Below are positions 5,048-55,192 of a stretch of DNA of 64,000 nucleotides, piece by piece. A model generated the notes under the pieces. That model made no database searches, was not told the origin of the DNA, and saw nothing but the letters and a program-made list of their open reading frames with translations. Position 1 is the first letter of the stretch. Each line of letters opens with the position of its first letter. Position numbers and translations under genes: made by a program. This DNA is from Heterodontus francisci (lineage: Eukaryota): positions 25,376,459 through 25,440,458 of the forward strand of contig NC_090412.1 of the NCBI RefSeq assembly GCF_036365525.1, in the 5' to 3' direction.

Positions 5048-7722
5048 TTATTTGCTAATCACCCCTTTGTCCCAGAGGACACACCTGCCTGCACGTATTT
5101 GTGCAAATTCTACTGCACTCCCCTGTGGCACTTTAACTATGTGAGGCATCACCCTCATGGTTTCTGTGCTCCCTAGAGGTCTCTCTTTGTCTCTGTAGGT
5201 TCCTGTAAATGCTGTTAGCAACTCTGGTGGGGTGCTTCTAGTGTCTGCATTTACACAGGAAGATGTGTGGTCTAACTTTGCACATTTTTTAGGGTTGGCT
5301 GACCGAACTGTAGGGGTTTTCATCCGGGATTCCTCCTGGACTTCCTTTAACCTGCCCCCTTGGTCATTTTTTCTCCTTCTCTGTCTAACCTTTTGCCAGC
5401 CTTGTGCCTGCCTGTCCCTTTTTGTTCTCGGTGGGTGTCCCTTACAGTTCACCAGCCCTCTGCTGGAGGGTCCTCTTAACACCGGTACAGGACTTAGGGG
5501 TGCAAGTTTCACTGTAGGCTGGGTTTTCCCCTCAACCTGGCACATGTGGCAACTCCTGCAATACTCCACCACATCTTTTTGGAGTTTTGGCCAGTCAAAC
5601 TGCTGTCTTATGCGGGCTTTGATCTTTTGTATACCGGCATGTACAGCTGCTGTAGTCTCGTGGGCCCTTCTTAATATTTTCTCTGCGGCACCTCTGCTGC
5701 ACCACTAACTGGTGAACTACTGTCCACTCCTTGCTCTCGGGTCTGTGAGGAGAACTCCATTTCCTCATCAGTACCTCATTCTTTAAATAATAGCAATCAG
5801 GGACTCCCTCTGCCTCAATTTCAGACTGGGCAGCCTGTGCTAACTCTCACAATACTGGGTCAGCTCGCTGAGCCTCAGCTAGGGAAAATCCATTTAATTC
5901 ATTCCCTGCGTCTCCTAACTTTCCAAAGAAAGTCTCAGACAGACAGACCTCATGGTCATCTGCCTGAAGTGCTAATTCAGTCTCCTATGGGGGAGCTGGT
6001 TTGATCATGGCCTGATCCACTACACATTCAGGGAAACTGCAGGGGTCTGTCTCCCATCACTGCCCTGTCTCTCTGACCTCCTGCGGTCTTTCTTTCACTA
6101 ATGAGGGGCTACGACCTCACCCCCGCCAGATCATTACCTAGGAGCTGGTCAACCCTGTCCACAGGCAAACTAGGGCCAATTCCTACGGTCACCGGTCCCG
6201 AAACTAGATCGCACTCCAGGTGCACAGGGACAGGCATACACTGCCCTCCTATACCATTCACCATCATTTTGGTGTTCACTGCACTCTTTGGGGGAAAGGC
6301 CAAGCCTTTTCCCAGTAAAAGGGATCCAGTGGCCCCTGTGTCCCTGACAATTACAATGGGCTTGCTTGCTCGACTCGAGGGGTATGGGGTTACTTTCCCT
6401 TCAGACAAAAAACCCTGATAACCCTCAGGAACCCTATTAAATTTTCCTGCACCTGCAGCGGTAGACTTCCTGGGTCTCATTCTTACTGCAGTTAAAGCCA
6501 CAGCTTGCTCTGCTGTGCTTTCCATCAGGGTCCCTCTTCACTGAGCGGGTGTGCCCTGATTAACCCTACAGGTTTTCGCTTTAGTTTCCAAAAGTCAGCT
6601 CTTAAATGCCCTGCTTTATTACAATGGAAACACACAGGTCTCCTGGTCTCACTCTTGCTCTCAGCACCTTCCTTTTTGGCTAGAGGAGGGCCCCCTATGT
6701 CTCTTGCTTTCCTTTCTCTCCCAGGACTGCTTCGGCTCTTATCACCTTCCCACCCTTTGTCCTTTTCGGACATGTGGGGGTGACTAGGAAAGATTTTCCC
6801 CTGGGAAACTGACTTATAAATTAAAGCAAACTCATCGAGCAGAACGGCCACTTCCCGGGCTCTCTGGACCCGCTGCTCCTCTACATGTGTCTTTATGGAG
6901 AGTGGGAGTGAGTTTTTAAATTCCTCTAACAGAATTACTTCTCTGAGATTCTCATCGCTGAGCTGTACTTTAAGAGCCCTCAGCCACTGGTCAAAAGCCC
7001 ATTGCTTACTTCTTTCAAACTCCAGGTAAGTTTGATTAGCTTGCTTCTTGAGGGTTCTAAACTCTTGGCGCTGGGCTTCGGGTACAAATTCATATGCCCC
7101 GAAGATAGCACTTTTGGTCAGTTCATAATTTGATGAACTCTCATATGACAGCAGGGAATAAACCTCACGGGCTTTTCCAGTTAGCTTGCTTTGTAGTAAA
7201 AGAAGGCTGGCCATTTTAGCTGCCTTGCCAGTTTCTGAAAGGACACAAAAAATGCTTCTACATCCTCCTCATTGAATTTTGGCATTAATTGCGCTATTTT
7301 AACAATTCTCTACCCAGCCCTGAATAATGCTGCTCCGTATTGGCCATGCATTCACTGGGGCTACTCTGTCACCCCCTAGTTAACTCAAGCCACTTCAACT
7401 CGCTCTTTGCATTCCTTCTGTAATATTCTTTCTCTCTCTCTCCCCTCAAATTCAAGTTTGCTCTGTTCCAATTGTATCTTTGTGAACAATGCCCTGTCAG
7501 AGTTGCTTCTAACCCTGTTTCTGCTTCTTCAGGTTCAAGGCAAAAATGGTTGGCCACTAGTCTTAGGAGTTCAGACTTCCTAGCCTTGTCACATACAGTG
7601 ATCCCACACTGCTCAGCTATTTTTCTGAGCTCCTCCATTGACAGTGCTTTTAACTTATCCCAAGTTACTTCACCCTGGCTCGGGGAGCCACTAGCTTCAG
7701 TTGCAGACATGTTAATATTCAA
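5048..7722 (-). pseudogene. Degenerate gag-protease-integrase(N-term) polyprotein of the LTR element
   Basis: SCAN/CA-CTD-like LREVILLEEFKNSLP...VLLDEF; decayed zinc knuckle CFHCNKAGHLRADF; aspartic protease VRDTGATGSL; integrase Zn motif YCRSCHMCQ; frameshifts and stops between pieces. Confidence 0.85.
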
Positions 7723-7850
7723 TCACACACAACCAGAAGGAACCCTGTATTGAAATTTTGCTCTTTTTGATTGGGAACAATGTGGCTTCCCACTTCCAAT
7801 TTCTCTTGTTTGTCTGTGGGTAAAATTCCAGATGCTAGCACCCAAATTTC

Positions 7851-8738
7851 TGTTAAGACCAGGTGAGAAAGAGGTCTAGGGTTCCCTTTCACCCTTCACC
7901 TTGTCTTACTGTAACAAGGTTTAAGTTTAAACACACCGTGTTTTTAGCGCCCCCTTGGTGAATCCTTGTTCACTGCTTTCCAATTATAAGGCAAAGAAAC
8001 CAGCACAAACAGGCTTTCTCAGGTTTAAAGAGAAAAGTTGAAATTTATTCAATTTAAACTCTAATTTGGTTAACACCTATGGATACATGCCACGCCCCAC
8101 GTTAGCATGCATACACGATACCCATATGCAAATAGAGACAGAAAAGAGCAGAAGAAAAATAAAGTGGAAAAGTTTGAGGCAATATCAGAAGAGTTGTTGT
8201 TACAGTTATTCGAGCTCACTGTAGATTCCTTGATTGTCGGTAGATCTTGCTTTTCGTTGGGGCCCAGTATTCTTCTTAACCCTTGTTCGCTATCGGAGAC
8301 TTTTCTCTCTTGGGGTTCATGTGTCTTCAGTGGATTCAAAGGCTTGTGAGAAAGAGATGGGAGCAGACGGGAGAGAGATCTTCTCAGTCCAGGAGCAAAC
8401 AGCTTTCTGCCCAAACTGTTTGTACAAATTCAAAAAACTCAGGTTGCCCAGTAGATTAGTCATGTGACTAGCTGGTTCGACCATGTCCGTATTTGTATTC
8501 GGTCATCTTAGCAGTCAACCTGGAATGCGAGCTCCCCCACCTTCAATGTCTGGTGATCAAAAGTCCATTGTGGGTTGAATGTGTCAGGGAATGGCTGCTT
8601 TGTCCTTACAAACTCTGTCTGTTAATATGCAAATGTCTTTTCCAGCCACGGCTGATCTGTTCAAAAAGTCCTCCCCTCACTCCAGTAACAGTTTAATATC
8701 GATGTTCATGACAAAATTAATGTGCCTCATTCTTGGCA
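7851..8738 (-). repeat. 5' LTR of the Gmr1-like element
   Basis: Direct repeat of 3459-4330; followed by a PBS-like tgggtgctagcatctggaat on the minus strand. Confidence 0.88.
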
Positions 8739-10484
8739 CTCAGCCTTAAATATATTCAATGATGGTGCATCCACAACCTTCTGTGGTGGAGAATTCCAAA
8801 GATTCACAGTGCTTTGAGGAAAGAAATTTCTCCTCATCGCAGTCCTAAATGATCATCCCTTATCATGAGTCTGTGCTCCTGTGTTCTAGATTCCCCAGCC
8901 AAGGGAAACAACCTCTCAGTATCTACCCTGTCAAACCCTTTCAGGATCTTTCAGTTCTCTCAGGTCTAACCCCAACATTGTGATCAAACCTGTTGACAAG
9001 AACAGTGCTGTTGTTGTCTGGCGTACTGACATCTACCTTGCAGAGGCTGAGCGCCAACTCTCAGACACTGCTTCCTACCTCCCCCTGGATCATGACCCCA
9101 CCACCGCACATCAAGCCACTGTCTCCAGGACTGTCACGTTCCTCATCTCCTCTGGAGATCTTCCCTCTACAGCTTCCCACCTCATAGTCCTGCAAATCCG
9201 ACAGCCCGCTTCTATTTCCTTCCCAAAATCCACAAACTGGACTGTCCTGGTAGACCCATCATTTCAGTGTGCTCCTGTGTCACTGAACCTATTTCCTCCT
9301 ATCTTGGTTCTACTTTTTCTCCCCTTGACACCCTACGTCATTTCGACAGTTTCCAGTTTCCTGGCCCTAAGCATCTCATCTTCACTATGAACGTTGAATC
9401 TCTCTACACCTCCATCCCCCAGGACAGTCTGAGGGCTCTCCGCTTCTTTCTTGAACAGAGGCCCAACCAGTCCCCATCCACCATCACCCTCCTCCACCTG
9501 GCTGAACTTGTTCTCACATTGAACAACTTCTCCTTCAACTCTACTCACTTCCTCCAAATAAAATATGTTGCTATGGGTACCTGCATAGGTCCTAGTAATG
9601 CTTCCCATTTTGTGGGATATGTCGTACATTCCTTGTTCCGGTCCTACTCAGGCCCCCTCCCCCAACTCTTTTTCTGGTACATTGATAACTGTATCAATGC
9701 CATTTCCTGCTCTCATCCTGAACTGGAAAACCTCATCAACTTTGCTTCCAATTTCCACCCTTCTCTCACCTTCACATGGTCCATCTCTGACACTTCCCTT
9801 CCTTGATTTCTCTGTCTCCATCTTTGTGGCTAGGCTGTCCACCAATACTTAGTATAAGCCCAAAGACTCCACAGCTACCATGACTACATTTCCTCACACC
9901 CTGCCTCTTGCAAGGACTCCATTCCATACTCCCGGTTTCTCCATCTCCAACGTATCTGTTCTGATGATGCAACCTTCCACAACAGCGCATCTGATATATC
10001 TTCCTGTTCCCTCAATTGAGGATCCCCCCGCCCCCCCGCACTGTGGTTGACAGGGCCCTCAACCGTGTCCGACCCATTTCCCACACTTTTGCTCTCACCT
10101 CTTCCCCTCCCTCCCAGAACCATGACAGGGTTCCCCTTGTCCTCACTTTCTACCCCACCAGCCTCCACAGCCAAAGGTTCATCCTCCGCCATTTCTGCCA
10201 TCTCCAGCGTGGTGCCACCACCAATCACATCTTCCCCTCCTCTCCCCTATCAGCATTCTGAAGGGATTGTTCCCTCCGCGACACCCTGGTCCACTCCTCC
10301 ATCATCTCCAAACGCCTTGTCGCTCTCCCATGGCACCTTCCCATACAATCGCAGGAGGTGTAACACTTGCCCTTTTACCTCCTCTTTCTTCATCATCCAA
10401 GGCTTTGAACATTACTTCCAGGTGAAGCAGCGATTTACTTGTACTTCTTTCAATTTAGTGTACTGTATTTGCTGCTCATAGCGC

Positions 10485-10842
10485 ATTAGATTAGATTAGA
10501 TTAGAGATACAGCACTGAAACAGGCCCTTCGGCCCACCGAGTCTGTGCCGAACATCAACCACCCATTTATACTAATCCTACACTAATCCCATATTCCTAC
10601 CAAACATCCCTGCCTGTCCCTCTATTTCCCTACCACCTACCTATACTAGTGACAATTTATAATGGCCAATTTACCTATCAACCTGCAAGTCTTTTGGCTT
10701 GTGGGAGGAAACCGGAGCACCCGGAGAAAACCCACGCAGACACAGGGAGAACTTGCAAACTCCACACAGGCAGTACCCGGAATCGAACCCGGGTCCCTGG
10801 AGCTGTGAGGCTGCGGTGCTAACCACTGCGCCACTGTGCCGC
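10485..10842 (-). mobile_element. HE1/V-SINE, young, (TCTAA)n tail
   Basis: Intact A and B boxes on the minus strand (TGGCGCAGTGG, GGTTCGATTCC), V-domain and (ATTAG)n end; near-identical to 34290-34641. Confidence 0.9.
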
Positions 10843-11415
10843 ATTGGGGGGATCAAACGCAGATTGGGTGATCGCTTTACAGAACGCCTCCACTCAGCCC
10901 ACAGGCATGATCCCGAGCTTCCAGTTGCTTGCCATTTTAATTCACCACCCTGCTCGCATGCCCACATTACTGTCCTTGGCCCACTGCAGTGTTCCAGTGA
11001 AGCTCAATGCAAGCTCGAGGAACAGCATCTCATCTTCCGATTAGGCACTTTACAGCCTTCGGGACTCAGTATTGAATTCAGTAGATTATGAGCCTCATTA
11101 TTACTTATTTATTATTTTTTTTATATCTTTTTTTTTAACCATGTGCCTGTCTTAAACTTGTTTTTCCCATTTTTGCTTTTGGACAGATCTGTTCATTATT
11201 CTGCCATTAGCACTCTCTCTGAACAAATGCTTTGTCTTTTACTACAACTATTTAACCCTCCATTTGCTTTGTGTTCTGTGACATCTCTGTCATTTGACAT
11301 CTCTGTCATTTAACCTCTCCTGTCCTCAGCCCTATCACAGATCTTCCCTTTTGTTCTTCTTTCCCCTCTTGCCCCTTTCACTTGCTCAAAGACTGTTACA
11401 TTTCTAACTTTTGCC

Positions 11416-11452
11416 AGTTCTGATGAAGGGTCACAGACCTGAAACGTTAACT
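11416..11452 (+). ncRNA. Minimal type I hammerhead ribozyme motif (Penelope-associated)
   Basis: AGTT-CTGATGA-AGGGTCACAGACCT-GAAA-C-GTT-AACT: stem I AGTT/AACT, conserved core, stem II, palindromic stem III (AACGTT), GUU cleavage triplet. Confidence 0.75.
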
Positions 11453-11519
11453 CTGTTCCTCTCTACACAGATGCTGCCAGACCTGCTGAGTATTTCCGGC
11501 ACTTTCTGTTTTTTATTTT

Positions 11520-11830
11520 TTATTTAGAGATACAGCACTGAAACAGGCCCTTCGGCCCACCGAGTCTGTGCCAACCAGCAACCACCCATTTATACTAACC
11601 GTACAGTAATCCCATATTCCCTATCGCCTCCCTACACTAGGGGCAATTTACAACGGCCAATTTACCTATCACCTGCAAGTCTTTTGGAGGTGGGAGGAAA
11701 CCGGAGCAACCGGCGAAAACCCACGCAGACACAGGGAGAACTTGCAAACTCCGCACAGGCAGTACCCAGAATCGAACCCAGGTCCCTGGAGCTGTGAGGC
11801 TGCGGTGCTAACCAATGCGCCACTGTGCCA
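11520..11830 (-). mobile_element. HE1/V-SINE inserted in the Penelope 3' region
   Basis: V-SINE consensus; Penelope tail resumes at tttcaaagttccagcatccacagtatttt. Confidence 0.85.
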
Positions 11831-12309
11831 TTTCAAAGTTCCAGCATCCACAGTATTTTGCTCTTATTCCTTCAGAATCTTGTATGTTTCAATGAGATCA
11901 CCTCTCCTTCTTCTAAACTGCAGAGAGTATAGACCCAATGTACTCAGCCTCTCCTCAAGACAACCCTCTCATCCCAGGAACTAATCGAGTGAACCTTTGA
12001 TGTACTGCCTCCACGGCAAGTATATCCTTCCTTACATATGGAGTATTCCAGGTGTGGTTTCACCAAAACCCTATACAATTGTGGCAAGACTTCTTTATTC
12101 TTGCACTCCAATCCCCTTGCAATAAAGGCCAACATGCCATTTGCGTTCCTAATTCCTTGCTGTACTTGCATGCTAACTTTCTGTGTTCCTTGTAGGAGTA
12201 CACCCAAGTCCCTCCAAAGATCAACATTTACAATTTTCATGCCTTTAAAAAAACAGTGTATTACAATATAAGAGGAGAGAGACAGTCATTGAAAATAGAG
12301 TATTATAAG

Positions 12310-14845
12310 AAAGATCGAGATGTAAAATTAGTTTGGGTGAAGATAAGAAATAGCAAAGGAAAGAAGTCACAGGTGGGAGTAGTTGAAAGGCCCCATAACA
12401 GTAGCTACACTGTAGGACAGAGTATAAATCAAGAATTAATGGGGGCCTGTAAGAAAGGTACTGCAATAATCATGGGTGATTTTAATCTTCATATAGATTG
12501 GAGTTATTGAATTGGCAAAGGTAGCCTGGAGGATGAGTTCATAGAGTGTACTAGGGATAGTTTCTTAGAACATTATGTTCTGGAACCAACCTGGGAGCAG
12601 ACTATTTTAGACCTAGTAATGTGTAATGCATTTGTGATCTTGTCCTGTCAGGATATATCAATAATGTGCTGCAGACAGTGAAAATGGAAATTATTGAGCT
12701 TCTTTTCCCAGTAGCTGTAAGTTGCCCATATTTCACAGCCATACAGCAAGGTGCTGAGAACATAGGCCTTATAAACCATCAGCTTGGCCTCAAGGGTCAG
12801 CTTGGTGTTATCCCATGCACGTTTCGCGAGTCAGCCAAAGGTGGTAGCTGCTTTCCCTATGCGTGTATTGAGCTCTGCATCAAAGGACAGATTGGCTGTC
12901 ACCGTGGACAGAGGAATTTGCTAGCCACTTCCAGTGGGGTGTTATTTAGTGTGTTCACGGGTGGAGATGCAACACCTTGTCCTGTGACCGCGGTATTCTT
13001 GGCGCTTATAGTTAAGGAGAACATGTTACAGGCACGGGAGAGACAGTCTATGAGACTTTGTGAGCTGCCAGCCAATAGCAGGGCAGCACAGCAGTATCGG
13101 CAGTGCCACCTGCAGTGGTAGCCACTGCTGGTACTGCGGAGGACTTGGACACAGGCCCAGTGCTAGAGAGCCAGACCTCAGGTAAGTGAGGCGGGGTCGC
13201 CGGGGCAGTCTGGAAGGCCCTGGCAGGGTGGGGGTGGTCTGGGGACTTGGAGTTTTTCTCAGTGGAGGTCCTCAGTGGGCCACAGATTGCCGCCCCCTCC
13301 ACCTCCTGTCGCAATTCTGTGGGGCCTCCTGCCTCTGACCCCACCTCAGGGGAGCCCATGAAATCCAGCCCAGTGGATGTATTGGTTGAAATCTTCTAAA
13401 ATCCCTAGATTTTGGAAAGGTCCCAGCAGATTGGAAAACCACAAATGTAACACCTCTATTCAAGAAAGGAGGGAGACAGAAAGCAGGAAACTATAGGTCA
13501 TTTTGCCTAACATCTGTCTTGGGGAAATGCTAGAATCCATTATTAAGGAAGTAGTAGTAGGACAATTAGAAAATCAGAATACAATCAAGCAGAGTTAATA
13601 TGGTTTTATGAAAAGGAAATCGTGTTTGATGAATTTATTAGAGTTCTTTGAGGATGTAACAATCAGGGTGGATAAAGGGGAACCAGTAGATGTAGTGTAT
13701 TTGCATTTCCATAAGGCATTCGATGAGATGCCACATAATAGATTACTGCACAAGGTAAGAGCTCATGGTTTTGGGGGTGATATATCAGCATGGATAGAGG
13801 ATTGGCTAACAAACAGGAAACAAAGAGTCGGGATAAATGGGACATTTTTAGGTTGGCAAACTGTAACTAGCAGGGTGCCACAGGGATCAGTGCTGGGCCC
13901 TCAACTATTTATGATCTATATTAATGACTTGGATGAAAGGACTGAGCATATTGTAGCCAAATTTGCAGATGTAACCAAGATAGATAGGAAAGCAAGTTGT
14001 GAGGACACAAAGTGCCTGCAATGAGATATAGATAGGTTAGGTGAATGGCAAAAATTTGGCAGATGGAGTAATAAGTGGGAAAATGTGAGGTTGCCCACTA
14101 TAATGGGAAGACAAACAGAATATTATTTACATGGAGAGAGACTGTAGAATGCTGCGGTACAGAGGGATCTGGATGTCCTTGTACATGAATCACAAAAGGT
14201 TGGCAGGCAGGTACAGCAAGTAATTAGGAAGGCAAAAGGAATGTTGGCATTTATTGCAAGGGGGATAGAGTATAAAAGTAGGGATGTCTTGCTATAACAG
14301 GGCGTTGATGAGACCACCCCTAGAGTACTGCGTACAGATTTGGTCTCCTTACTTAACGAGGGATTTACTTGCATTGGAAGCAGTTCAGGGAAGGTTCATT
14401 CAACTGATTCCTCGGATGAAGGGATTGTCTTACGAGGAAAGGTTGAGCAGGTTGGGCCTACACTCATTGGAGTTTAGAAGAATAAGGTGAGGGGGCTTGA
14501 CAGGGTTGATGCTGAGAGGATGTTTCTCCTCATGGGGGAATCTAGAAGTAGGGGACAGTTTCAAAATAAGGGGTTGCCCATTTAAGACAGAGATGAAGAG
14601 GAATTTCTTCTCTCAGAGGCTCATTAATCTTTGGAATTCTCTTCCCCAGAGAGCAGTGGAGGCTGGGTCATTGAATATATTCAAGGCTGAATTTTACAGA
14701 TGTTTGATTTCCAAGGGTGTCAAGGGTTATGCAGGAAAGTGGAGTGAAGGGCACAATCAGATCAGCCCCAAACTTATTAAATGGCGGAGCAGGCTCGAGG
14801 GGCCGAATGGCCTATTCCTGTTCCTATTTCTTATGAACTTATGAG
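12310..14845 (+). mobile_element. CR1 LINE relic (EN fragment + RT) with an internal insertion at about 12630-13385
   Basis: IIMGDFN (endonuclease), SCLMNLLEFFEDV, VPQGSVLGP, KFAD, LEYCVQ, CR1 3' tail. Confidence 0.85.
12630..12900 (-). mobile_element. RTE-clade LINE fragment
   Basis: Minus strand reads KAATTFG*LAKRAW...KLMVYKAYVLSTLLYGCEIW...KLNNFH, typical of the RTE post-RT region. Confidence 0.65.
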
Positions 14846-15276
14846 TCTGTCAGTGAAACAGTGTATTATAATATCTACAGGAGAGATACTGTCAGTGAAA
14901 CACAGTGTATTATAACATATACAGGCAAGATACTGACACTGAAAGACGGTGTTGTATAATACAAACAGGAGACAGACTGTCAGTGAAACACAGTTTCATC
15001 CAGTATAAACAGGAAAGAGTGTCAGTGAAAGAGTGTATTATAAAATATACAGCAGAGGTACTGTCAGTAAAAGACAGTGTTTTATAATGAAAACAGGAAA
15101 GAAACTGTCAGTGAAACACGGTTTCATATAATATATACGGGAGGGACACTGTCGGTGAAATGGTGTGTATTATATACGGGAGAGACTGTCAGTGAAACAT
15201 GGTGTAATATAATATATGCACTCAGTGAAACACAGTGAATTACAATATTTAGAGGAGAGAGACAGTCATTGAAAAT
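14845..15276. repeat. Degenerate 44-bp satellite units
   Basis: Repeats of gtcagtgaaacacagtgtattataat...caggagag. Confidence 0.85.
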
Positions 15277-16730
15277 GCCAGAGGACTGGACGACAGTGAA
15301 TGTGGTATCACTATTCAAGAAGGGTAGCAGGGATAAACCAGGTAATTAGAGGCCGGTGAGTCCAACATCAGCGGTAGGGAAACTAATGGAAAAAATTCTG
15401 AGGGACAGGATTAATCTCCACTTGGAGAGGCAGGGATTAATCAAGGATAGTCAGCGTGGCTTTGTCAGGGGGAGATCATGTCTAACATACTTGATTGAAT
15501 TTTTCGAGGAGGTGACTAGCTGTGTAGATGAGCATAAAGTAGTTAATGTAGTCTACATGGACTTCAGTAAGGCTTTTGATAAGGTCCCGCATAGGAGATT
15601 AATTAAGAAGGTAAGAGCCCATGGGATCCAGGGCATTTTTGGCAAATTGGATCCAAAATTGGCTTAGTGGCAGGAGGCAGAGGGTGATGGCCGAGGGTTG
15701 TTTTTGCAATTGGAAACCTGTGACAGTGGTGTACCACAGGGATCGGTGCTGGGACCCTTGCTGTTTGTAGTGTACATTAATGAGGTATGATCAGTAAGTT
15801 CACAGATGACATGAAAGTTGGTGGTGTTGTAAATAGTGAGGAGGAAAGCCGTAGATTACAGGACGATATAAATGGGCTGGTAAGATGGGCAGAACAGTGA
15901 CAAGTGGAATTTAATCCTGAGAAGTGTGAGGTGATGCATTTTGGGAGGACTAACAAGGCAAGGGAATATAGAATGGATGGTAGGACCCTAGGAAGTACAG
16001 AGGGTCAGAGGGACCTTGGTGTACTTGTCCATAGATCACTGAAGGCAGCAGCACAGGTAGATAAGGTGGTTAGGAAAGCATAAGGGATACTTGCCTTTAT
16101 TAGGCGAGGCATAGAATATAAGAGCAGGGAGGTTATGATGGAGCTGTATAAAACGTTAGTTATGCCACAGCTGGAGTACTGTGTACAGTTCTGGTCACCA
16201 CACTATAGGAAGGATGTGATTGCACTGGAGAGGGTACAGAGGAGATTCACCAGAATGTTGCCTGAGCTGGAGCATTTCAGCTATGAAGAGAGACTGGATA
16301 GGCTAGGGTTGTTTTCCTTAGAGCAGAGAAAGCTGAGGGGGAACCTGATTGAGGTATAAAAAATTATGAGGGGCATAGATAGGGTAGATAGGAAGAAACC
16401 TTTTCCCTTAGCGGAGATGTCAATAACCAGGGGGCATAGATTTAAGGGAAGGGGCAGAAGGTTTAGAGGGGATTTGAGGAAAAAAAATTTCACCCAGAGG
16501 GTGGTTGGAATCTGGAACACACTGCCTGAAGGGGTGGTAGAGGCAGGAACCCTCACCACACTTAAGAAGTATCTAGCTGAGCACTTGAAATGCCGTAGCA
16601 TACAAGGCTACGGGCCAAGTGCTGGAAAATGGGATTAGAATAGATAGGTGCTTGATGGCTAGTGTGGACACAATGGGCCGAGGGGCCTGTTTCTGAGCTG
16701 TATAACTCTATGATTCTATGACTATGACTC
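15277..16730 (+). mobile_element. CR1 LINE, 5'-truncated, inserted in the satellite
   Basis: RSCLTYLIEFFEEV, VYMDFSKAFDKVPH, LEYCVQFWSP, (ATGACT)n tail; short AAAAT duplication at the flanks. Confidence 0.9.
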
Positions 16731-16975
16731 TAAAATAGTGTATTATACTATATACAGTGAAAGGCTGTAAATGAAACAGATTGTATTATAATACATACAG
16801 AAAAGATACAGTTCGTATAACACTATTATAATAAATACAGTAAAGACTGTCTGTGAAACACAGTATTATAATATATGGAGAGAGTCATTGAAAATAGTGT
16901 ATTATGTACAGGAGAGAAACTCTCAGTGAAACAATGTATTATAGTATATACAGGAGGGACTATAGTGTATATACA
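16731..16975. repeat. Degenerate 44-bp satellite units
   Basis: Same unit motifs (gtgtattata...caggagag...gtgaaaca). Confidence 0.75.
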
Positions 16976-17147
16976 ATGGGAGTAATTTAACTTTGGCTGA
17001 TAGTGTAGCAGAGGCAATATTAATCTAGCCACCTGTTTTGCCTCTGTTTGCATTTTCATTTCCATTTAAGGTAATTGCAGCTGCACAGACTGATTCAGTG
17101 TATGTGAGGGACATGCATCATGGAATATATAATGCCCAATGTGAAAA

Positions 17148-17545
17148 GACAGGCTTATATTTATCTAGAGCCTTTCATGACCTCAGGATGTCTCAAATGT
17201 CAATGACGTATTTTCTGAAGTGTAGTCACTGTTGTAGTGTAGGGAATGTAGCAGCCAATATGCGCACAGCAAGCTCCCACAAACAATAACACAATAGTGA
17301 CTAGATAAGCTGTTTGATTGAGGGATAAATATTAAGAACTCCCCAGCCCTTGTTTGAAATCGGGCCGTGGGATCTTTTATGTTCAGTTTAGAAAGCAGGC
17401 ACGGCCTCTGTTTATTGTCTCATCCAAAAAGGTTGTACCTGTGATAGTGCTGCACTGCCTCGGCACTGCACTGAAGTGTCAACCTAGATTTATTTGGTCT
17501 CCAGTCTCTGGAGTGTGACTTGAATCCTGAACCTTGTGACTCAGT
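17148..17545 (-). mobile_element. Deu-domain tRNA-SINE (SacSINE1-like) with L2-type tail
   Basis: Reverse complement of the shared consensus (…aggctgacact…cagtgcagt…gagttct…tttatccctcaa…ttgctgtgcgca…gaaaggc…). Confidence 0.7.
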
Positions 17546-18584
17546 GGTGAGATTATTGCCTCTGAGTATTATACAACACCGTCTTTCACTGTCAGTATCG
17601 TTCCTGTATATATCACATTCCGAACAGGTTGGAAAGCATTGTAGAGTAATAGCACCTCTTGACAAATTGTGTAAGGAAATGCATCATGGAAGTTTTGGTT
17701 GTTACCCTGTGTATATAATTAAAAAGTACTGTGCCAACCAGGGAAACATTTGCAAATAGCAACTGTGAGGTGTGGTTGATGGAAAAAAAATCTAAAATAA
17801 AACCTCGTCTGAAACAGGTTAAGCATTAACTAATTCAGAACGCACAGCATTGTGTAAGAATTTATTTGTACTGCTGAGGGTGAGAAGAGGTTGTTTGTTG
17901 CAAATCTTTGAAGGTCATTCAGGCTGGGAGCAGACCGAGTGACTTGTTCAGGAACTAATCACTGCAGGCCTGGGACATTTTTTGGGCGGTCGTAGTCCAA
18001 AGAGAGCAAGTTGCATAAAACCACTGATGTAAGGAGAAAATAAGAATATATTTGTTATAAGGACTGAGATAGAGAATGAAAACGTACAGGAGAGCAGAGA
18101 GACAAATAAGTAACATAATTACACTGTGAGCAAATGCTGCATATCTGACAATAGACATAAAACAAGAAATTATCGTGTAAGTAAATAAAATGACGAGATT
18201 TTTGCGATGTAACAGCAAAGGAGATTACTTGCATACTAGGTTTTCTACTGTGGTAGCTATCCAGCATTACAAATTTTGGATGTCGCTGCTTAAAGCACAT
18301 CTTTTTGAACAAGCTTTTGGTCACCTGTATCTCCCTATGTGGCTTGGTTTCAAATTATGTCCACGCAGCTGTGAAGTGTCTTGTGATGTTTCACTAGGTT
18401 AAAGGTGCTTTATAAATGCAACTTGTTGTTGCAGTGTCAGAAATCAGGCCCTGGGCCTCAACTGCACCAAACAGGTGAGCTGTGGACACCAAACATCCAC
18501 CCCATACAGCTGGTCATCTACCCGATGCTCATTTCTCACCCGATAAATGGATATGACATGGTCAGATTCTTTACCTGTTATTGC

Positions 18585-24025: not shown

Positions 24026-26015
24026 GAAAGACTTGCATTTACCTAGCACCTTTCATGACCTCAGGATATCCCAAAGTGCTACACAGACAAGTAAGTACTC
24101 TCTGAAGTGTAGTCACTGTTATAATGAAGGAAATACAACAGCCAGTTTGTGCCCATCAAGCCCCCACAAACAGCAATGAGATAAATGACCAGTTAATCTG
24201 TTTTAGATTAATGGATATGTATTGGCTAGGACACCAGGGAGAACACCCCTACTCTTCTTCGAAATAGTCTTCTTCTTAGGCAGTCCCTCAGGGTCGAGGA
24301 GGACTTGCTTCCACCCTGGCTTGATGGTTTCTGAGATGGCTGATGAGTCCAATGCATGATCTGCAGACTTTGCCGCATGAAGGATAGATGGTGCTTGAAG
24401 GGTCAGGTAAATGAGTAGTTTGGAGGTTTGTGCGCTCCCTCCCATGCCTCGACTTCGCCTCCGCATGTTCCCGATGAAGGTTGTTGAGGTGTACAATGCC
24501 TTCCCAAGTGAACTTTCTCCATCTAGGACAGTCACGAGCCAGGGACTCCTATGGAGATGTCTGATCTGTTCAGAAATGCTTTGAGGACATCTCTAATGTG
24601 TTTCCTCTGTCCTCCTGGGAGTCTCCTGCCATGGCCAAGTTCTGAGGAGAACAGCTGCTTCAGGAGTCTGGTGTCAGGCATGCAAATGACATGTCCTGCC
24701 CAGTGGAGCTGGTTTTGGGTGATTAGCACCCTGATACTGGGCAAGTTGGCTTGGGAGAGGATGCTGCTGGTGGACCGCCTTCCTTGCTGTCTTCCATGAT
24801 CTTAGTCTTGGGTTTGAGATCCTGATTCTTAAATACTTTCTTCCTTTGTTGGCCGAAGGATGAGCTGGCACATTGGAGGTGATGATGAGCTTCATCATTT
24901 ATGCCTGCCTTTGCTGAGAGAAGGCTCCCAAGATATGGAAAATGGTCCACATTTTCCAGGATTTCACCAGTGATCTTGATTGATGGGGGGAGATGCTGTG
25001 CTGTGGGAGCTGGTTGGAGGAGGACCTTCATTTTCCGTGTGTTTAGTGAAAGACCCATTTTCACATATGCTTCGGAGAAGGAGTCAACACTGATCTGGAG
25101 TTCAGTTTCAGAGTGAGCGCATACGCAGGTGTCATCTGCATGCCGATATCCTCACATCCCTCATCTGGGATGAGGAGTGCTTGCTGGGGCACTTCAGGGA
25201 CACTGTGATCATGACTGTATTCAAGAAGGGGGATAAGGCCAATTGCAGCAACGACAAAGGAATCTCCCTACTGTCTGCCACAGAGAAGATCATTACAAGG
25301 ATCCTCCTCAATCACCTTCTCCCAGTGACTGAAGAGCTCCTTCCGGAGTCACAGGGCAGCTTTCACCTATCGAGAGGCACCACATACATCATCTTCACTG
25401 CATGGCCAATCCAAGAAACATGCAGGGGACAACGTCAACTGCTGTACGTGGCCTTTCTCGATCTCACTAACGCCTTTGATTCTGTCAACTACAAACGATT
25501 ATGGAGCATTCTGCTCAAATTTGGCTGCCCTCAGAAGTTTGTCACCATCCTCCGTCTACTCCACAATGACATGCAAGCCGAGATCCTCACCAACGGAACC
25601 ACCACAGACCCTCTCTCAGTCAAGACCAGGGACAGGCAAGGCTGTGTCATCACACCAACCCTCTGCTCCATTTTCTTCACTGCAGTGCTGCACCTCACCT
25701 CCAGCAAACTACCTGCAGGCATGGAGATAATCTACAGAACAGATGGGAAACTGTTCAACCTGCGCCATCTTCAATCCAAAACAAAAATTACTCCAATTTC
25801 AGTCGTCAAGCTTCAAAATAGTGCCCTGGGATCTTTTACATCTATATGAGTGGATGTACGGGCCTTGGTTTACTGTTGCATGCAAAAGATAACACTTCCA
25901 ACACTCCCTCGGTACTGTACAGGAGTGTCAGCCTAGATTTTGTGCTCAATCTATAGTGTGTGTCCTGAACAACTTTCTGACTCAGAGGTGTGAATGCTAT
26001 CACTTAGTCAGTGCT
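24026..26015 (-). mobile_element. Deu-domain SINE split by the RTE insertion (24026-24268, 25811-26015)
   Basis: Consensus ctcttcttcgaaatagt|gccctgggatctttta is continuous across the insertion. Confidence 0.75.
24269..25810. mobile_element. RTE LINE with inverted 5' segment (3' part on minus strand 24269-25140; 5' RT part on plus strand 25141-25810)
   Basis: Plus strand: FKKGDK..GISLLS..ESQ..AFLDLTNAFDSV..QGCVI..VVKLQ. Minus strand: ADD..MGLSLNTRK..FPYLGS..; (AAG)n tail; TSD CTTC(G/A)AAATAGT. Confidence 0.88.
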
Positions 26016-34928: not shown

Positions 34929-35039
34929 ATAAAAACAGACATTTCTGGAAATACTCTGCAGGTCTGGCAGCATCGGTGGAGAGAGAAACAGTGATGAAAG
35001 GCGATTGATCTGAAATGTTAGCTCTATTTCTCTGTCCTC
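34929..35039. mobile_element. Short Penelope-derived fragment with inverted piece and decayed hammerhead core
   Basis: Antisense PLE tail followed by TGATGA...GAAATGTTAGCT; TSD AAGTAT(T/C)TTTGTA (34916-34928, 35040-35052). Confidence 0.65.
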
Positions 35040-36209
35040 AAGTATCTTTGTAGTTCCTGTTGTAATGTGGGGAACACAACAGCCGATTTGCACGCAGAGT
35101 GACCACCAGCCATTATGAATGGTGGCTCAGTGAGGAGCACTCTTGTTCCTGGGTCAGGAGATTCTAAGTTTAAATCCTGCTCCAGAGACTGTAATCTAGG
35201 CTGATACTTCAATGGAGTACTGAAGGACTGCTGCACAGCAAGGTCCCACAAACACCAGTGAGATAATTGCTTTTAGCTATAAATATTAGGCAGAACACCG
35301 GGGCAAACTCCTCTCTACTTCTTCGCATAGTACCATGGAATCTTTTATATCCACCTGGGCAGGCAGACAGGGTTAACTTGGCCTGCAAAGGGCAGCACCT
35401 CCACCAGTGCAGCACTCCCTCAATTGCTATGCTGGAGTGTCAGCCTAGATTACATCTCAAGTCTCTGCAGTGAGTCTTGGACACACACACCCCACTGAGT
35501 CACAACTGACACTGGCACCAATCGTCCTCATCCTTGTCTGTGAAGGAATCAGTGAGATTTTGTGTGGCTGTGGAGGGAGAGGGTAAGCAGATGGGAGATT
35601 TATTGGAATGAAATGGAGATTCTAGTATTCCACCCTTCTTAACCTCAGCAGGATTCTGATACAAACTGACAAGTGAAAATAGCTGTGCTGGAAAGGAGTA
35701 GCACAGCCTGTTTTCTGAAGGAATCAGCAACCGAGAGCTGGGAAAGCCCCAGCTGAAGGGCTTGCAGTCCTTGTAGGCCTGTACAAACTGCACTGCGACA
35801 CTCAGTAATCCCTTGACCCTGTGGCTTAATTCAAATATCTTTTTCAGCGCTGTGACATACACGGCAGGAAGGCTGCACATTCACGAGCTGGTCAGTGCAA
35901 ACCTGATCTCAGGGGCTAGGGTTGGAATAATAAATTGACCTTCTCCCACCCTCCCCAAGGAAGGGCTCCAGCTTTTGATTGGTATCTACTGACCCCTGCT
36001 GGATGCTGCCTGTGTGTGGGATGGTAGATGGGAACAGAATGGGGTACGGATGCCAAGAGCGATGCGACCTATGCTGCAAGGCACTGGACGGAAGATGCTA
36101 ACAAATGAAAATGTTGTCAAGCCCTTTCTTATAAGATGGAACCCTTTATAACTTTGTTTCAGTTGAAAAGGCCCCGAAGAGAGATATATAGTCAGTAATA
36201 GTAAACGAC

Positions 36210-43032: not shown

Positions 43033-43208
43033 ACACCCAAGATAATTCCGGGCCAAACGGTGATTCTCAGGGAACTGCGGAGAGCGTACGGAAGCAGCTG
43101 CGAAGTGAAGCCTTTGCCCAGCAGCAGTTGGAGGCCCTGGAACGTGTGTTTGAGCGCCAGCACTATTCAGACGTCTTCAACGCTGGAGAACACATCAAAT
43201 CAGAACAG
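43033..43208 (+). CDS. pax2: Pax2/5/8-family internal coding exon (partial homeodomain), Pax2-like; Pax8 orthology not excluded
   Basis: Pyrimidine tract + AG acceptor (tcctcttcctcttag) and GTGAGT donor; 176 bp, phase 1 to phase 0. Encodes (D)[58 protein letters not shown], matching the recalled PAX2 segment PNGDSQ...RKHLR...QQQLEALDRVFER...EHIKSEQ. Confidence 0.9.
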
Positions 43209-46784: not shown

Positions 46785-48360
46785 CATGTGGTGCCATTAT
46801 TCAAGAAGGGTAGCAGGGATAAACCAGGCTGGTGAGTCTAACATAAGTGGTTGGGAAAATATTGAAAAAAATTCAGAGGGACAGGATTAATCTCCACTTG
46901 GAGAGGCAGGGATTAATCAGGGATAGTCAGCATGGCTTTGTCAGGGGGAGATCGTGTCTAACTAACTTGATTGAATTTTTCGAAAAGGTGATTAGATGTG
47001 TAAATGAGGGTAAAGCAGTTGATGTAGTCTACATGGACTTCAGTAAGGCTTTTGATAAAGTCCTGCATGGGAGATTGGTTAAGAAGGTAAGAGCCCATGG
47101 GATCCAGGGCAATTTGGCAAATTGGATCCAAAATTGGCTTAGTGGCAGGAGGCAGAGGGTGATGGTCAAGGGTTGTTTTTGCGAGTGGAATCCTGTGATC
47201 AGTGGTGTACCGCAGGGATCGGTGCTGGGACCCTTGCTGTTTGTAGTGTACATTAATGATTTAGATGTGAATATGTGAGGCATGATAAGTAAGTTCGCAG
47301 ATGACACGAAAATTGTTGGTGTCGTAAATAGTGAGGAGGAAAGCCTTAGATTATTGGGCGATATAGATGGGCTGGTAAAATGGGCGGAGCAGTGGCAAAT
47401 GGAATTTAATCCTGAGAAGTGTGAGGTGATGCATTTTGGGAGGACTAACAAGACAAGGGAATATACAATGGATGGTAGGATCCTAGGAAGTACAGAAGGT
47501 CAGAGGGACCTTGGTATACTTGTTCATAGATTACCGAAGGCAGCAGCACAGGTAGAAAAGGTGGTTCGGAAAGCATATGGGATACTTGCATTTATCAGCT
47601 GAGGCATAGAATATAAGAGCAGGGAAGTTATGATGGAGCTTTATTAACTGCTATAATAAAAGCAAAATACTGCGGATGCTGGAAATCTGAAACAAAAACA
47701 AGAAATGCTGGAATCACTCAGCAGGTCTGGCAGCATCTGTGGAAAGAGAAGCAGAGTTAATGTTTCGGGTCAGTGACCCTTCTTTATTAACTGCTAGTTA
47801 GGCCACAGCTGGAGTACTGTGTACAGTTCTGGGCACCACACTATAGGAAGGATGTGATTGCACTGGAGAGGGTATAGAGGAGATTCACCAGGATGTTGCC
47901 TGGGCTGGAGCATTTTAGCTATGAAGAGAGACTGGGTAGGCTAGGGTTGTTTTCCTTGGAGCAGAGAAGGCTGAGGGGGGACATGATTGAGGTATACAAA
48001 ATTATGAGGGGCATTGATAGGTTAGATAGGAAGAAACTTTTTCCCTTAATGGAGGGATCAATAATCAGGGGGCATAGATTTAAGGTAAGGGGCAGGAGGT
48101 TTAGAGAGGATTTGAGGAAAAAGTTTTTTACCCAGAGAGTGTTTGGAATCTGGAACACACTGTCTGAAGAGGTGGTAGAGGCAGGAACCCTCACAACATT
48201 TAAGAAGTATCTAGATGAGCACTTGAAATGCCATAGCATACAAGGCTATGGGCCAAGTGCTGGAAAATGGGATTAGAATAGATAGGTGCTTGATGGCCGG
48301 CACGGACACGTTGGGCTGAGTGGCCTGTTTTTGTGCTGTATGACGCTATGACTCTATGAC
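46785..48360 (+). mobile_element. CR1 LINE, 5'-truncated (same subfamily as 15277-16730)
   Basis: SQHGFVRGRSCLTNL, DFSKAFDKV, GVPQGSVLGP, KFADDTK; (ATGACT)n tail. Confidence 0.92.
47654..47781 (-). mobile_element. 128-bp Penelope 3'-end insertion inside CR1
   Basis: Perfect 15-bp TSD CTTTATTAACTGCTA (47639-47653, 47782-47796); minus strand starts (G)AAGGGTCACTGACCCGAAAC and ends gtattttgcttttatta. Confidence 0.85.
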
Positions 48361-54310: not shown

Positions 54311-54437
54311 GCTAATGAATATTCCCTCTCTGCCTTGGCCTCTGGATTGGACGATGTCAAAAGCAGCCTCTCCGCCGCTGCTACTCCCGACCTTGGCACC
54401 AATGTTACAGGGCCCCAGAGCTACCCTGTTGTGACAG
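54311..54437 (+). CDS. pax2: Pax2/5/8-family coding exon following the partial homeodomain
   Basis: tttctctcag acceptor and GTAAG donor; 127 bp, phase 0 to phase 1, in frame with the previous exon. Encodes [42 protein letters not shown](G), matching recalled PAX2 GNEYSL...GLDEVKSSLS...YPVVTG. Confidence 0.9.
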
Positions 54438-54960: not shown

Positions 54961-55192
54961 CACAAACAAGAAATGCTGGAAATACTCAGCAGGTCTGGCA
55001 GCATCTGTGGAAAGAGAAACCGAGTTAAAATTTTTAGTCAGTGACCCTTCCTTAGAACTGATGAAGGGTCACTGACCTGAAACATTAACTCTGCTTCTCT
55101 CTCCACAGATGCTGCCAGACTTGCTGAGTATTTCCAGCATTTCGTTTTTGTGTTTCAGATTTCCAGCATCCGCAGTATTTTGCTTTGATTTT
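54961..55192 (+). mobile_element. Palindromic Penelope-derived mini-element with hammerhead core
   Basis: Inverted arms around CTGATGA (55058); TSD TGTAATA(G/T)ATAGTA (54947-54960, 55193-55206). Confidence 0.85.

Follow-up and report, generated by a model that had tools for sequence, protein, structure and literature searches.

The 64,000-nt stretch of Heterodontus francisci DNA analyzed here (contig NC_090412.1, hereafter the window) contains, at 11416–11452 on the + strand, a real minimal type I hammerhead motif of a Penelope-like element, slightly decayed and recognized by its letters and by descriptor. We consider this motif very probably a passive relic, residing in the 3' repeat of a broken element copy that lies sense to Pax2, likely within an intron, and performing no meaningful cutting of Pax2 RNA. 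Under this reading, the element would have inserted 5'-truncated, without its upstream repeat, and neutral decay would have followed through frameshifts, stops, two SINE insertions, and loss of C11.1 at a CpG, with the core boxes of this copy kept by chance.

Anatomy of the motif

The earlier note on this DNA had read stem I, a CUGAUGA box, stem II, and GAAA at 11416–11452, and the letters agree. By complementarity, stem I comprises 4 bp (11416–11419 with 11449–11452), with U2.1 at 11419 and the CUGAUGA box at 11420–11426 (C3 to A9). A11427 is left unpaired between A9 and position 10.1, and the 5-bp stem II (11428–11432 with 11436–11440), which is closed by a G.U pair and has a loop of 3 nt, takes this register with a probability of 0.95–0.97 when the 37-mer is folded. 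GAAA (11441–11444, G12 to A15.1) is followed by C15.2 (11445) and G16.2 (11446) with no loop between them, and then by U16.1 (11447), U17 (11448), and A1.1 (11449). Hammerhead numbering predicts a cut between 11448 and 11449, exactly where the note had put it.

All core boxes (CUGANGA, GAAA, U16.1, and H17, the last being U in this copy) are present, and the palindromic 15.2/16.2 (C11445/G11446) without loop III is a trait of minimal Penelope hammerheads. The short stem I and stem II, also traits of this class, are present by complementarity, though they are not the predicted fold in native flanks. The description of the motif as intact was therefore right about the boxes but overstated: the 10.1–11.1 pair is G11428.U11440 (alternatively A11427–U11440 with a bulge) and not the G-C pair that is highly conserved and typical of the class, though outside its search descriptor (PMC4209133, in part). 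The note had also taken AACGUU as stem III, which was mistaken, since stem III proper is ACGU (11444–11447); the outer A and U are A14 and U17, and the longer pairing would tie up A14 and the cut-site U. We read the G.U as decay of this copy, which lowers its claim to be intact and leaves its family descent standing. Both a G.U at 10.1–11.1 and U17 would be expected to weaken cleavage. U17 is permitted by the NUH rule (PMC3884650, in part), and no rate data on G10.1.U11.1 or U17 were found in the accessible passages of the hammerhead literature, those of PMC544870 and PMC2837043 among them.

The hammerhead search that the note had proposed gave a divided answer. A type I descriptor run on both strands found one match in 64 kb, at the 11416 site, and none in any of 30 block-shuffled windows; Rfam, searched over 6000–18000, returned no hammerhead with E ≤ 5. 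Folded by itself, the 37-mer is no more stable than its own shuffles (z −0.52).

The Penelope-like copy and its relatives

The motif begins 329 nt behind the end of a 5'-truncated, broken Penelope-like ORF (8902–11091, + strand, by protein alignment) that encodes a reverse transcriptase (RT) and then a C-terminal GIY-YIG domain. Together with the descriptor match, this ORF bears out the earlier assignment to a minimal type I hammerhead of a Penelope-like element, located in its 3' repeat. The ORF lacks roughly the first 200–290 residues of related proteins, its frame shifts three times ahead of a SINE that splits the EN domain, and the aligned frames contain four stops. It is colinear with proteins P0116, P0138, and P0147, showing RT then GIY-YIG in one ORF. 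Pfam RVT_1 and GIY-YIG match P0116 and P0138, and among 17 window ORFs submitted to Pfam the element's own fragments gave no match. On protein similarity, the assignment to Penelope-like elements of the C-terminal endonuclease type holds. Two ray proteins annotated as DIPK1C and CHID1 isoforms (P0128 and P0135) are made up mostly of this Penelope ORF, a sign of either exonisation or mistaken annotation.

Two copies of the same tRNA-derived SINE, both on the − strand, interrupt the element, one in the GIY-YIG region (10485–10840) and one splitting the tail (11516–11829). Upstream of the motif lies a pyrimidine-rich 3' region, or pseudo-LTR (11092–11415, + strand), with a copy depth far below that of motif and tail. 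Behind the motif is a high-copy tail (11453–11513, + strand), within which 11466–11476 is complementary to 11415–11425, and the remaining tail beyond the SINE (11831–11865, + strand) is similar to the sequence into which reads continue after 11513. No second motif was found in the window at the element's 5' end.

We compared this arrangement with 80 metagenome loci encoding relatives, 29 of which reach the end of the ORF with at least 300 nt of flank. A sense descriptor match was present 90–149 nt behind the ORF in 10 of these 29 loci, compared to 0/29 antisense and 0/580 shuffled flanks. When pairing was not required and up to two mismatches were allowed, boxes were detected in 21/29 loci (versus 2/29 on the reverse strand), with none in 8/29. 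The pair at 10.1–11.1 is G-C in 19/19 related descriptor matches, although any pair was allowed, and the extra base (19/19) and the missing loop III (19/19) are likewise features that the descriptor did not demand. Positions 15.2/16.2 are CG in 17 of the 19 and TG in two, while H17 is C in 15, A in two, and U in two. The motif is, to judge from these flanks, a fixed part of this kind of element, which single copies often lose. Exact tail patterns had 0 matches in viral and metagenome contigs, and no related proteins were found in viral contigs.

Abundance and read evidence

This shark likely carries the family in tens of thousands of copies. Of 11,989,820 reads in a raw DNA run with the same species label, 54,781 fall on 11050–11515 (≥80% identity); depth is ~39,000 in the tail and ~26,000 over the core, compared to <3,000 upstream of 11370. 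With the genome size assumed to be 3–5 Gb, the reads correspond to ~47,000–78,000 core-bearing copies, a rough figure because the library was made by capture.

The earlier note had looked to conservation of the core over its flanks, of which we find no significant sign: the 11416 copy differs from the read majority at 1/37 motif positions (in loop II) and at 6/61 tail positions (p = 0.25), a comparison that rests on 40 of 220 differences (the 20 of them that were recomputed each reach at least 55% in some run) and to which minority changes at the core, including 11440 and 11446, are invisible. Nor can the read data separate the 11416 copy from its paralogues. At 5–10% divergence, the 15 core letters survive by chance with a probability of 0.21–0.46, so a fifth to half of copies being core-intact needs no selection.

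The reads also show recurrent joints and ends around the motif. Copies with unrelated AT-rich 5' flanks pile up at 11416–11418, the motif's 5' edge (1,322 and 1,566 reads, run X21). Copies beginning at the cut site were considered and rejected, as 11449 is absent among the nine 5' loose ends listed (24 of 24 + 1,463 entries being listed). Strand-switch joints connect 11416–11420 to 11462–11477, matching the complementarity between 11415–11425 and 11466–11476, and suggest cDNA snap-back at the motif's 5' edge as the source of inverted pairs. A further 863 reads (~227 starts, X21) join 11513 back to 11447 with one letter between; this is a tandem tail array whose unit starts at most 2 nt from the predicted cut site, seen in one run only and with microhomology blurring the exact join. 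Finally, 11447–11473 contains TTAAC, a pyrimidine tract, CAG, and ATG in series, resembling a branch point followed by a 3' splice site and a start codon, and this stretch overlaps the cut site; a second CTAAC...AG ends at 11417. Sense family copies could act as cryptic acceptors; a Penelope intron ending at AG 11416–11417 or CAG 11468–11470 is not supported, there being no GT-AG joint among the 13 joints listed of 206.

The Pax2 gene and other family fragments

The motif had been placed sense to a Pax pre-mRNA, and this orientation stands: both Pax exons in the window lie on the + strand. The first (43033–43208), AG/GT bounded, encodes a partial homeodomain and is 100% identical to shark Pax2 proteins; the next (54311–54437) is also AG/GT bounded. 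Pax5, initially taken as the host gene, was replaced by Pax2 after this match. Since no earlier Pax2 exon was found in the window with five shark Pax2 isoforms, the preceding exon would lie before base 1, and the motif most likely sits inside a Pax2 intron over 43 kb long, a placement that presumes correct assembly. Isoform P0002 has an optional exon that lies between those for the octapeptide and the partial homeodomain; no match to it was found in 1–43032. The same region contains ORFs with SCAN and integrase zinc-binding domains (5048–7268, − strand), likely an LTR retrotransposon remnant, and a separate reverse transcriptase fragment (25094–25849, + strand, Pfam RVT_1) to which the Penelope proteins do not align.

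Six family arms occur at four sites in the window, three sense and three antisense to Pax2. Five of the six overlap the core, and every core letter is kept only in the 11416 copy. An inverted pair at 34932–35040 has a − arm consisting of tail only and a + arm, at 34992, in which C3 is lost, 15.2 is U, and stem II is disrupted. A single fragment antisense to Pax2 (47695–47787, − strand) keeps G10.1–C11.1 and has lost the CUGA box and G16.2. The second inverted pair (54964–55144) combines a decayed − arm with a + arm, at 55058, that keeps both boxes but is missing the 5' half of stem I and carries A at 16.2. No competent dimer partner was found on the sense strand of the window; the nearest other family arm is 23.5 kb from the motif, and the tandem units, each with a motif, that mark non-LTR retrozymes are absent.

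Decay at CpGs recurs among these arms. C11.1–G12 and C15.2–G16.2 are both CpGs, and the latter is altered in 4/4 other arms that cover it; in three of these, one CpG-type change accounts for the alteration. CpG decay is the likely cause of the C11.1 loss in the 11416 copy, given that the 47787 copy keeps the C, the related matches have G-C, and the other CpG is altered in other arms. T11440>C is absent among the 40 read differences listed (of 220); T may be common in the family.

Both inverted pairs are head-to-head. Their junctions coincide with, or lie close to, short CAG/CTG matches at the 5' edge of the motif, and each pair would form a long hairpin in Pax2 pre-mRNA. Inverted 5'-truncated arms and tails are standard for Penelope-like elements (PMC8557442, in part).

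Folding and the prospects for cleavage

Because stem III has no loop, a single motif cannot close it and depends on a partner. In the mechanism proposed for this kind of motif, two copies would exchange strands so that the ACGU of one pairs with that of the other; tandem transcripts of the element offer such an arrangement, and its own protein probably assists. In Pax2 pre-mRNA, the core box is instead predicted to pair with the tail. The CUGAUGA box pairs with 11445–11449 in the best structure of the 37-mer and with 11466–11470 in native flanks, and with at least 26 nt of native flank the probabilities are ≤0.002 for stem I and ≤0.02 for stem II. Nearest-neighbor energies, which leave out non-canonical core pairs, lack a known active ribozyme as control, and are suggestive only, give −17.3 kcal/mol for the local best fold versus −6.5 for the hammerhead stems. 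On the same terms, an active-like dimer (−8.5 kcal/mol) lies 6 kcal/mol above two best-fold monomers (−14.6) and 11 above the best dimer (−19.3). If the outer A and U of AACGUU pair as well, the predicted stability exceeds that of the active-like form (−10.9 vs −8.5 kcal/mol), and bases of the core and cut site would be locked in an inactive helix.

The suggestion in the earlier note that the motif, if able to dimerise, could cut the intron is thus unsupported: the window offers neither a competent sense partner nor an upstream repeat copy, and the energies place the active-like dimer above two misfolded monomers. Lunse et al., in RNA Biol 14:1499, reportedly announce dimer cleavage of such motifs in their title. 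A single minimal motif showed no detectable cleavage and dimers showed low cleavage (PMC4209133, in part), and a review holds that such motifs likely cut as dimers (PMC6765202, in part). The motif of an anole element cut only with the element's protein, no RNA-seq ends fell at its site, and cleavage was not needed for insertion (PMC11167929, in part). Within one set of engineered ribozymes, a member that cuts after GUU had the highest activity (PMC9217987, in part).

Several observations count against a relic. The core boxes are complete, 36/37 motif positions match the read majority (on 40 of 220 differences), the G.U is still a pair, U17 recurs in 2/19 related matches, and dimer partners may exist on other transcripts or in sequence preceding the window. 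It is conceivable, though unlikely, that the motif retains chemical competence and cleaves intronic Pax2 RNA, at low rates and in trans, with family transcripts or Penelope protein and without consequence for the host. The complete boxes would permit this, family sequence occurs in contigs of runs X7 and X5 (guessed to be RNA, though they may hold DNA), and protein-assisted cleavage is known for the anole element (PMC11167929, in part). However, a complex formed in trans would be held together by 4-bp stems I and by a stem III of two Watson-Crick pairs; it is predicted to be unstable and out-competed, and it would carry the G.U at 10.1–11.1, while the sense-strand neighbors in the window are defective. 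A broader version, in which core-intact sense copies cut in trans with family transcripts or Penelope protein, impose a genome-wide intronic cut load that includes Pax2, and survive where counter-selection allows, is more doubtful still.

Domestication, in which the motif would now regulate Pax2 splicing or the turnover of the intron in the manner of the amniote intronic hammerheads of RECK, CTCL, and DTNB, seems to us highly improbable. The motif's sense orientation in a developmental gene, the precedent of those domesticated motifs (PMC6155905), and its smaller divergence from the read majority compared to the tail are what such a history might leave, but the smaller divergence falls short of significance, the amniote motifs are canonical whereas this one has no loop III and a stem I of 4 bp, half of the window's family arms (3/6) are antisense, and the element around the motif is decayed and unremarkable. 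A coincidental match, compatible with the Rfam result and the unexceptional folding of the 37-mer, is already refuted by the 30 shuffled windows and by related elements, which carry the motif in the corresponding position together with traits that the descriptor left free.

Significance and comparison with known systems

As a passive relic, the 11416 copy matters little by itself; it is one more copy, likely inert, of an RNA class described in 2014 by Cervera and De la Pena in fishes, coelacanth, frog, and reptiles (PMC4209133, in part). Its wider use is statistical: with a family of this size, one could ask genome-wide if core-intact motifs are depleted from intronic sense strands, a question relevant to whether minimal Penelope hammerheads ever cleave RNA inside cells. 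A 2026 preprint describes hammerhead-bearing derivatives of Penelope elements in one cartilaginous fish, along with a deficit in Xenopus introns (bioRxiv 10.64898/2026.07.22.740005, in part). No shark example of a minimal Penelope hammerhead was found in the accessible text of PMC4209133 or in two of its three supplement files, and a literature search combining hammerhead ribozyme, shark, and Penelope returned one review, in which "shark" denotes a shape.

The closest match is the class of minimal Penelope hammerheads itself (PMC4209133, in part), which is likewise type I, with a 4-bp stem I, an unpaired base between A9 and 10.1, no loop III, a palindromic 15.2/16.2, and a flanking repeat. Those motifs are mostly single and derive from truncated copies, as does the 11416 copy, which differs in having G.U for the conserved G10.1–C11.1. 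Our estimated copy number exceeds the ~4,000 (coelacanth) and ~9,000 (Xenopus) motifs given there, though these were counted differently.

The anole Poseidon element PAc (Frangieh et al. 2024, PMC11167929, in part) shares with the shark family the RT and C-terminal GIY-YIG, a hammerhead in a repeat followed by a tail, and AT-rich insertion flanks. PAc is coding-competent and tandem, whereas the shark copy is truncated, broken, and single; the PAc ORF starts at stem II, whereas the shark copy's nearest ATG outside the core is at 11471. Non-LTR retrozymes (bioRxiv 10.64898/2026.07.22.740005, in part) are likewise non-coding derivatives of Penelope repeats that bear a type I hammerhead; they are reported from one cartilaginous fish genome, and their monomers are spread across chromosomes. 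They are defined by tandem units each with a motif, while the shark copy is single and attached to an ORF remnant. The amniote hammerheads in RECK, CTCL, and DTNB (PMC6155905) are also type I motifs in vertebrate introns, but are canonical and conserved across species; the shark motif is minimal, lies in a decayed element, and bears no sign of conservation.
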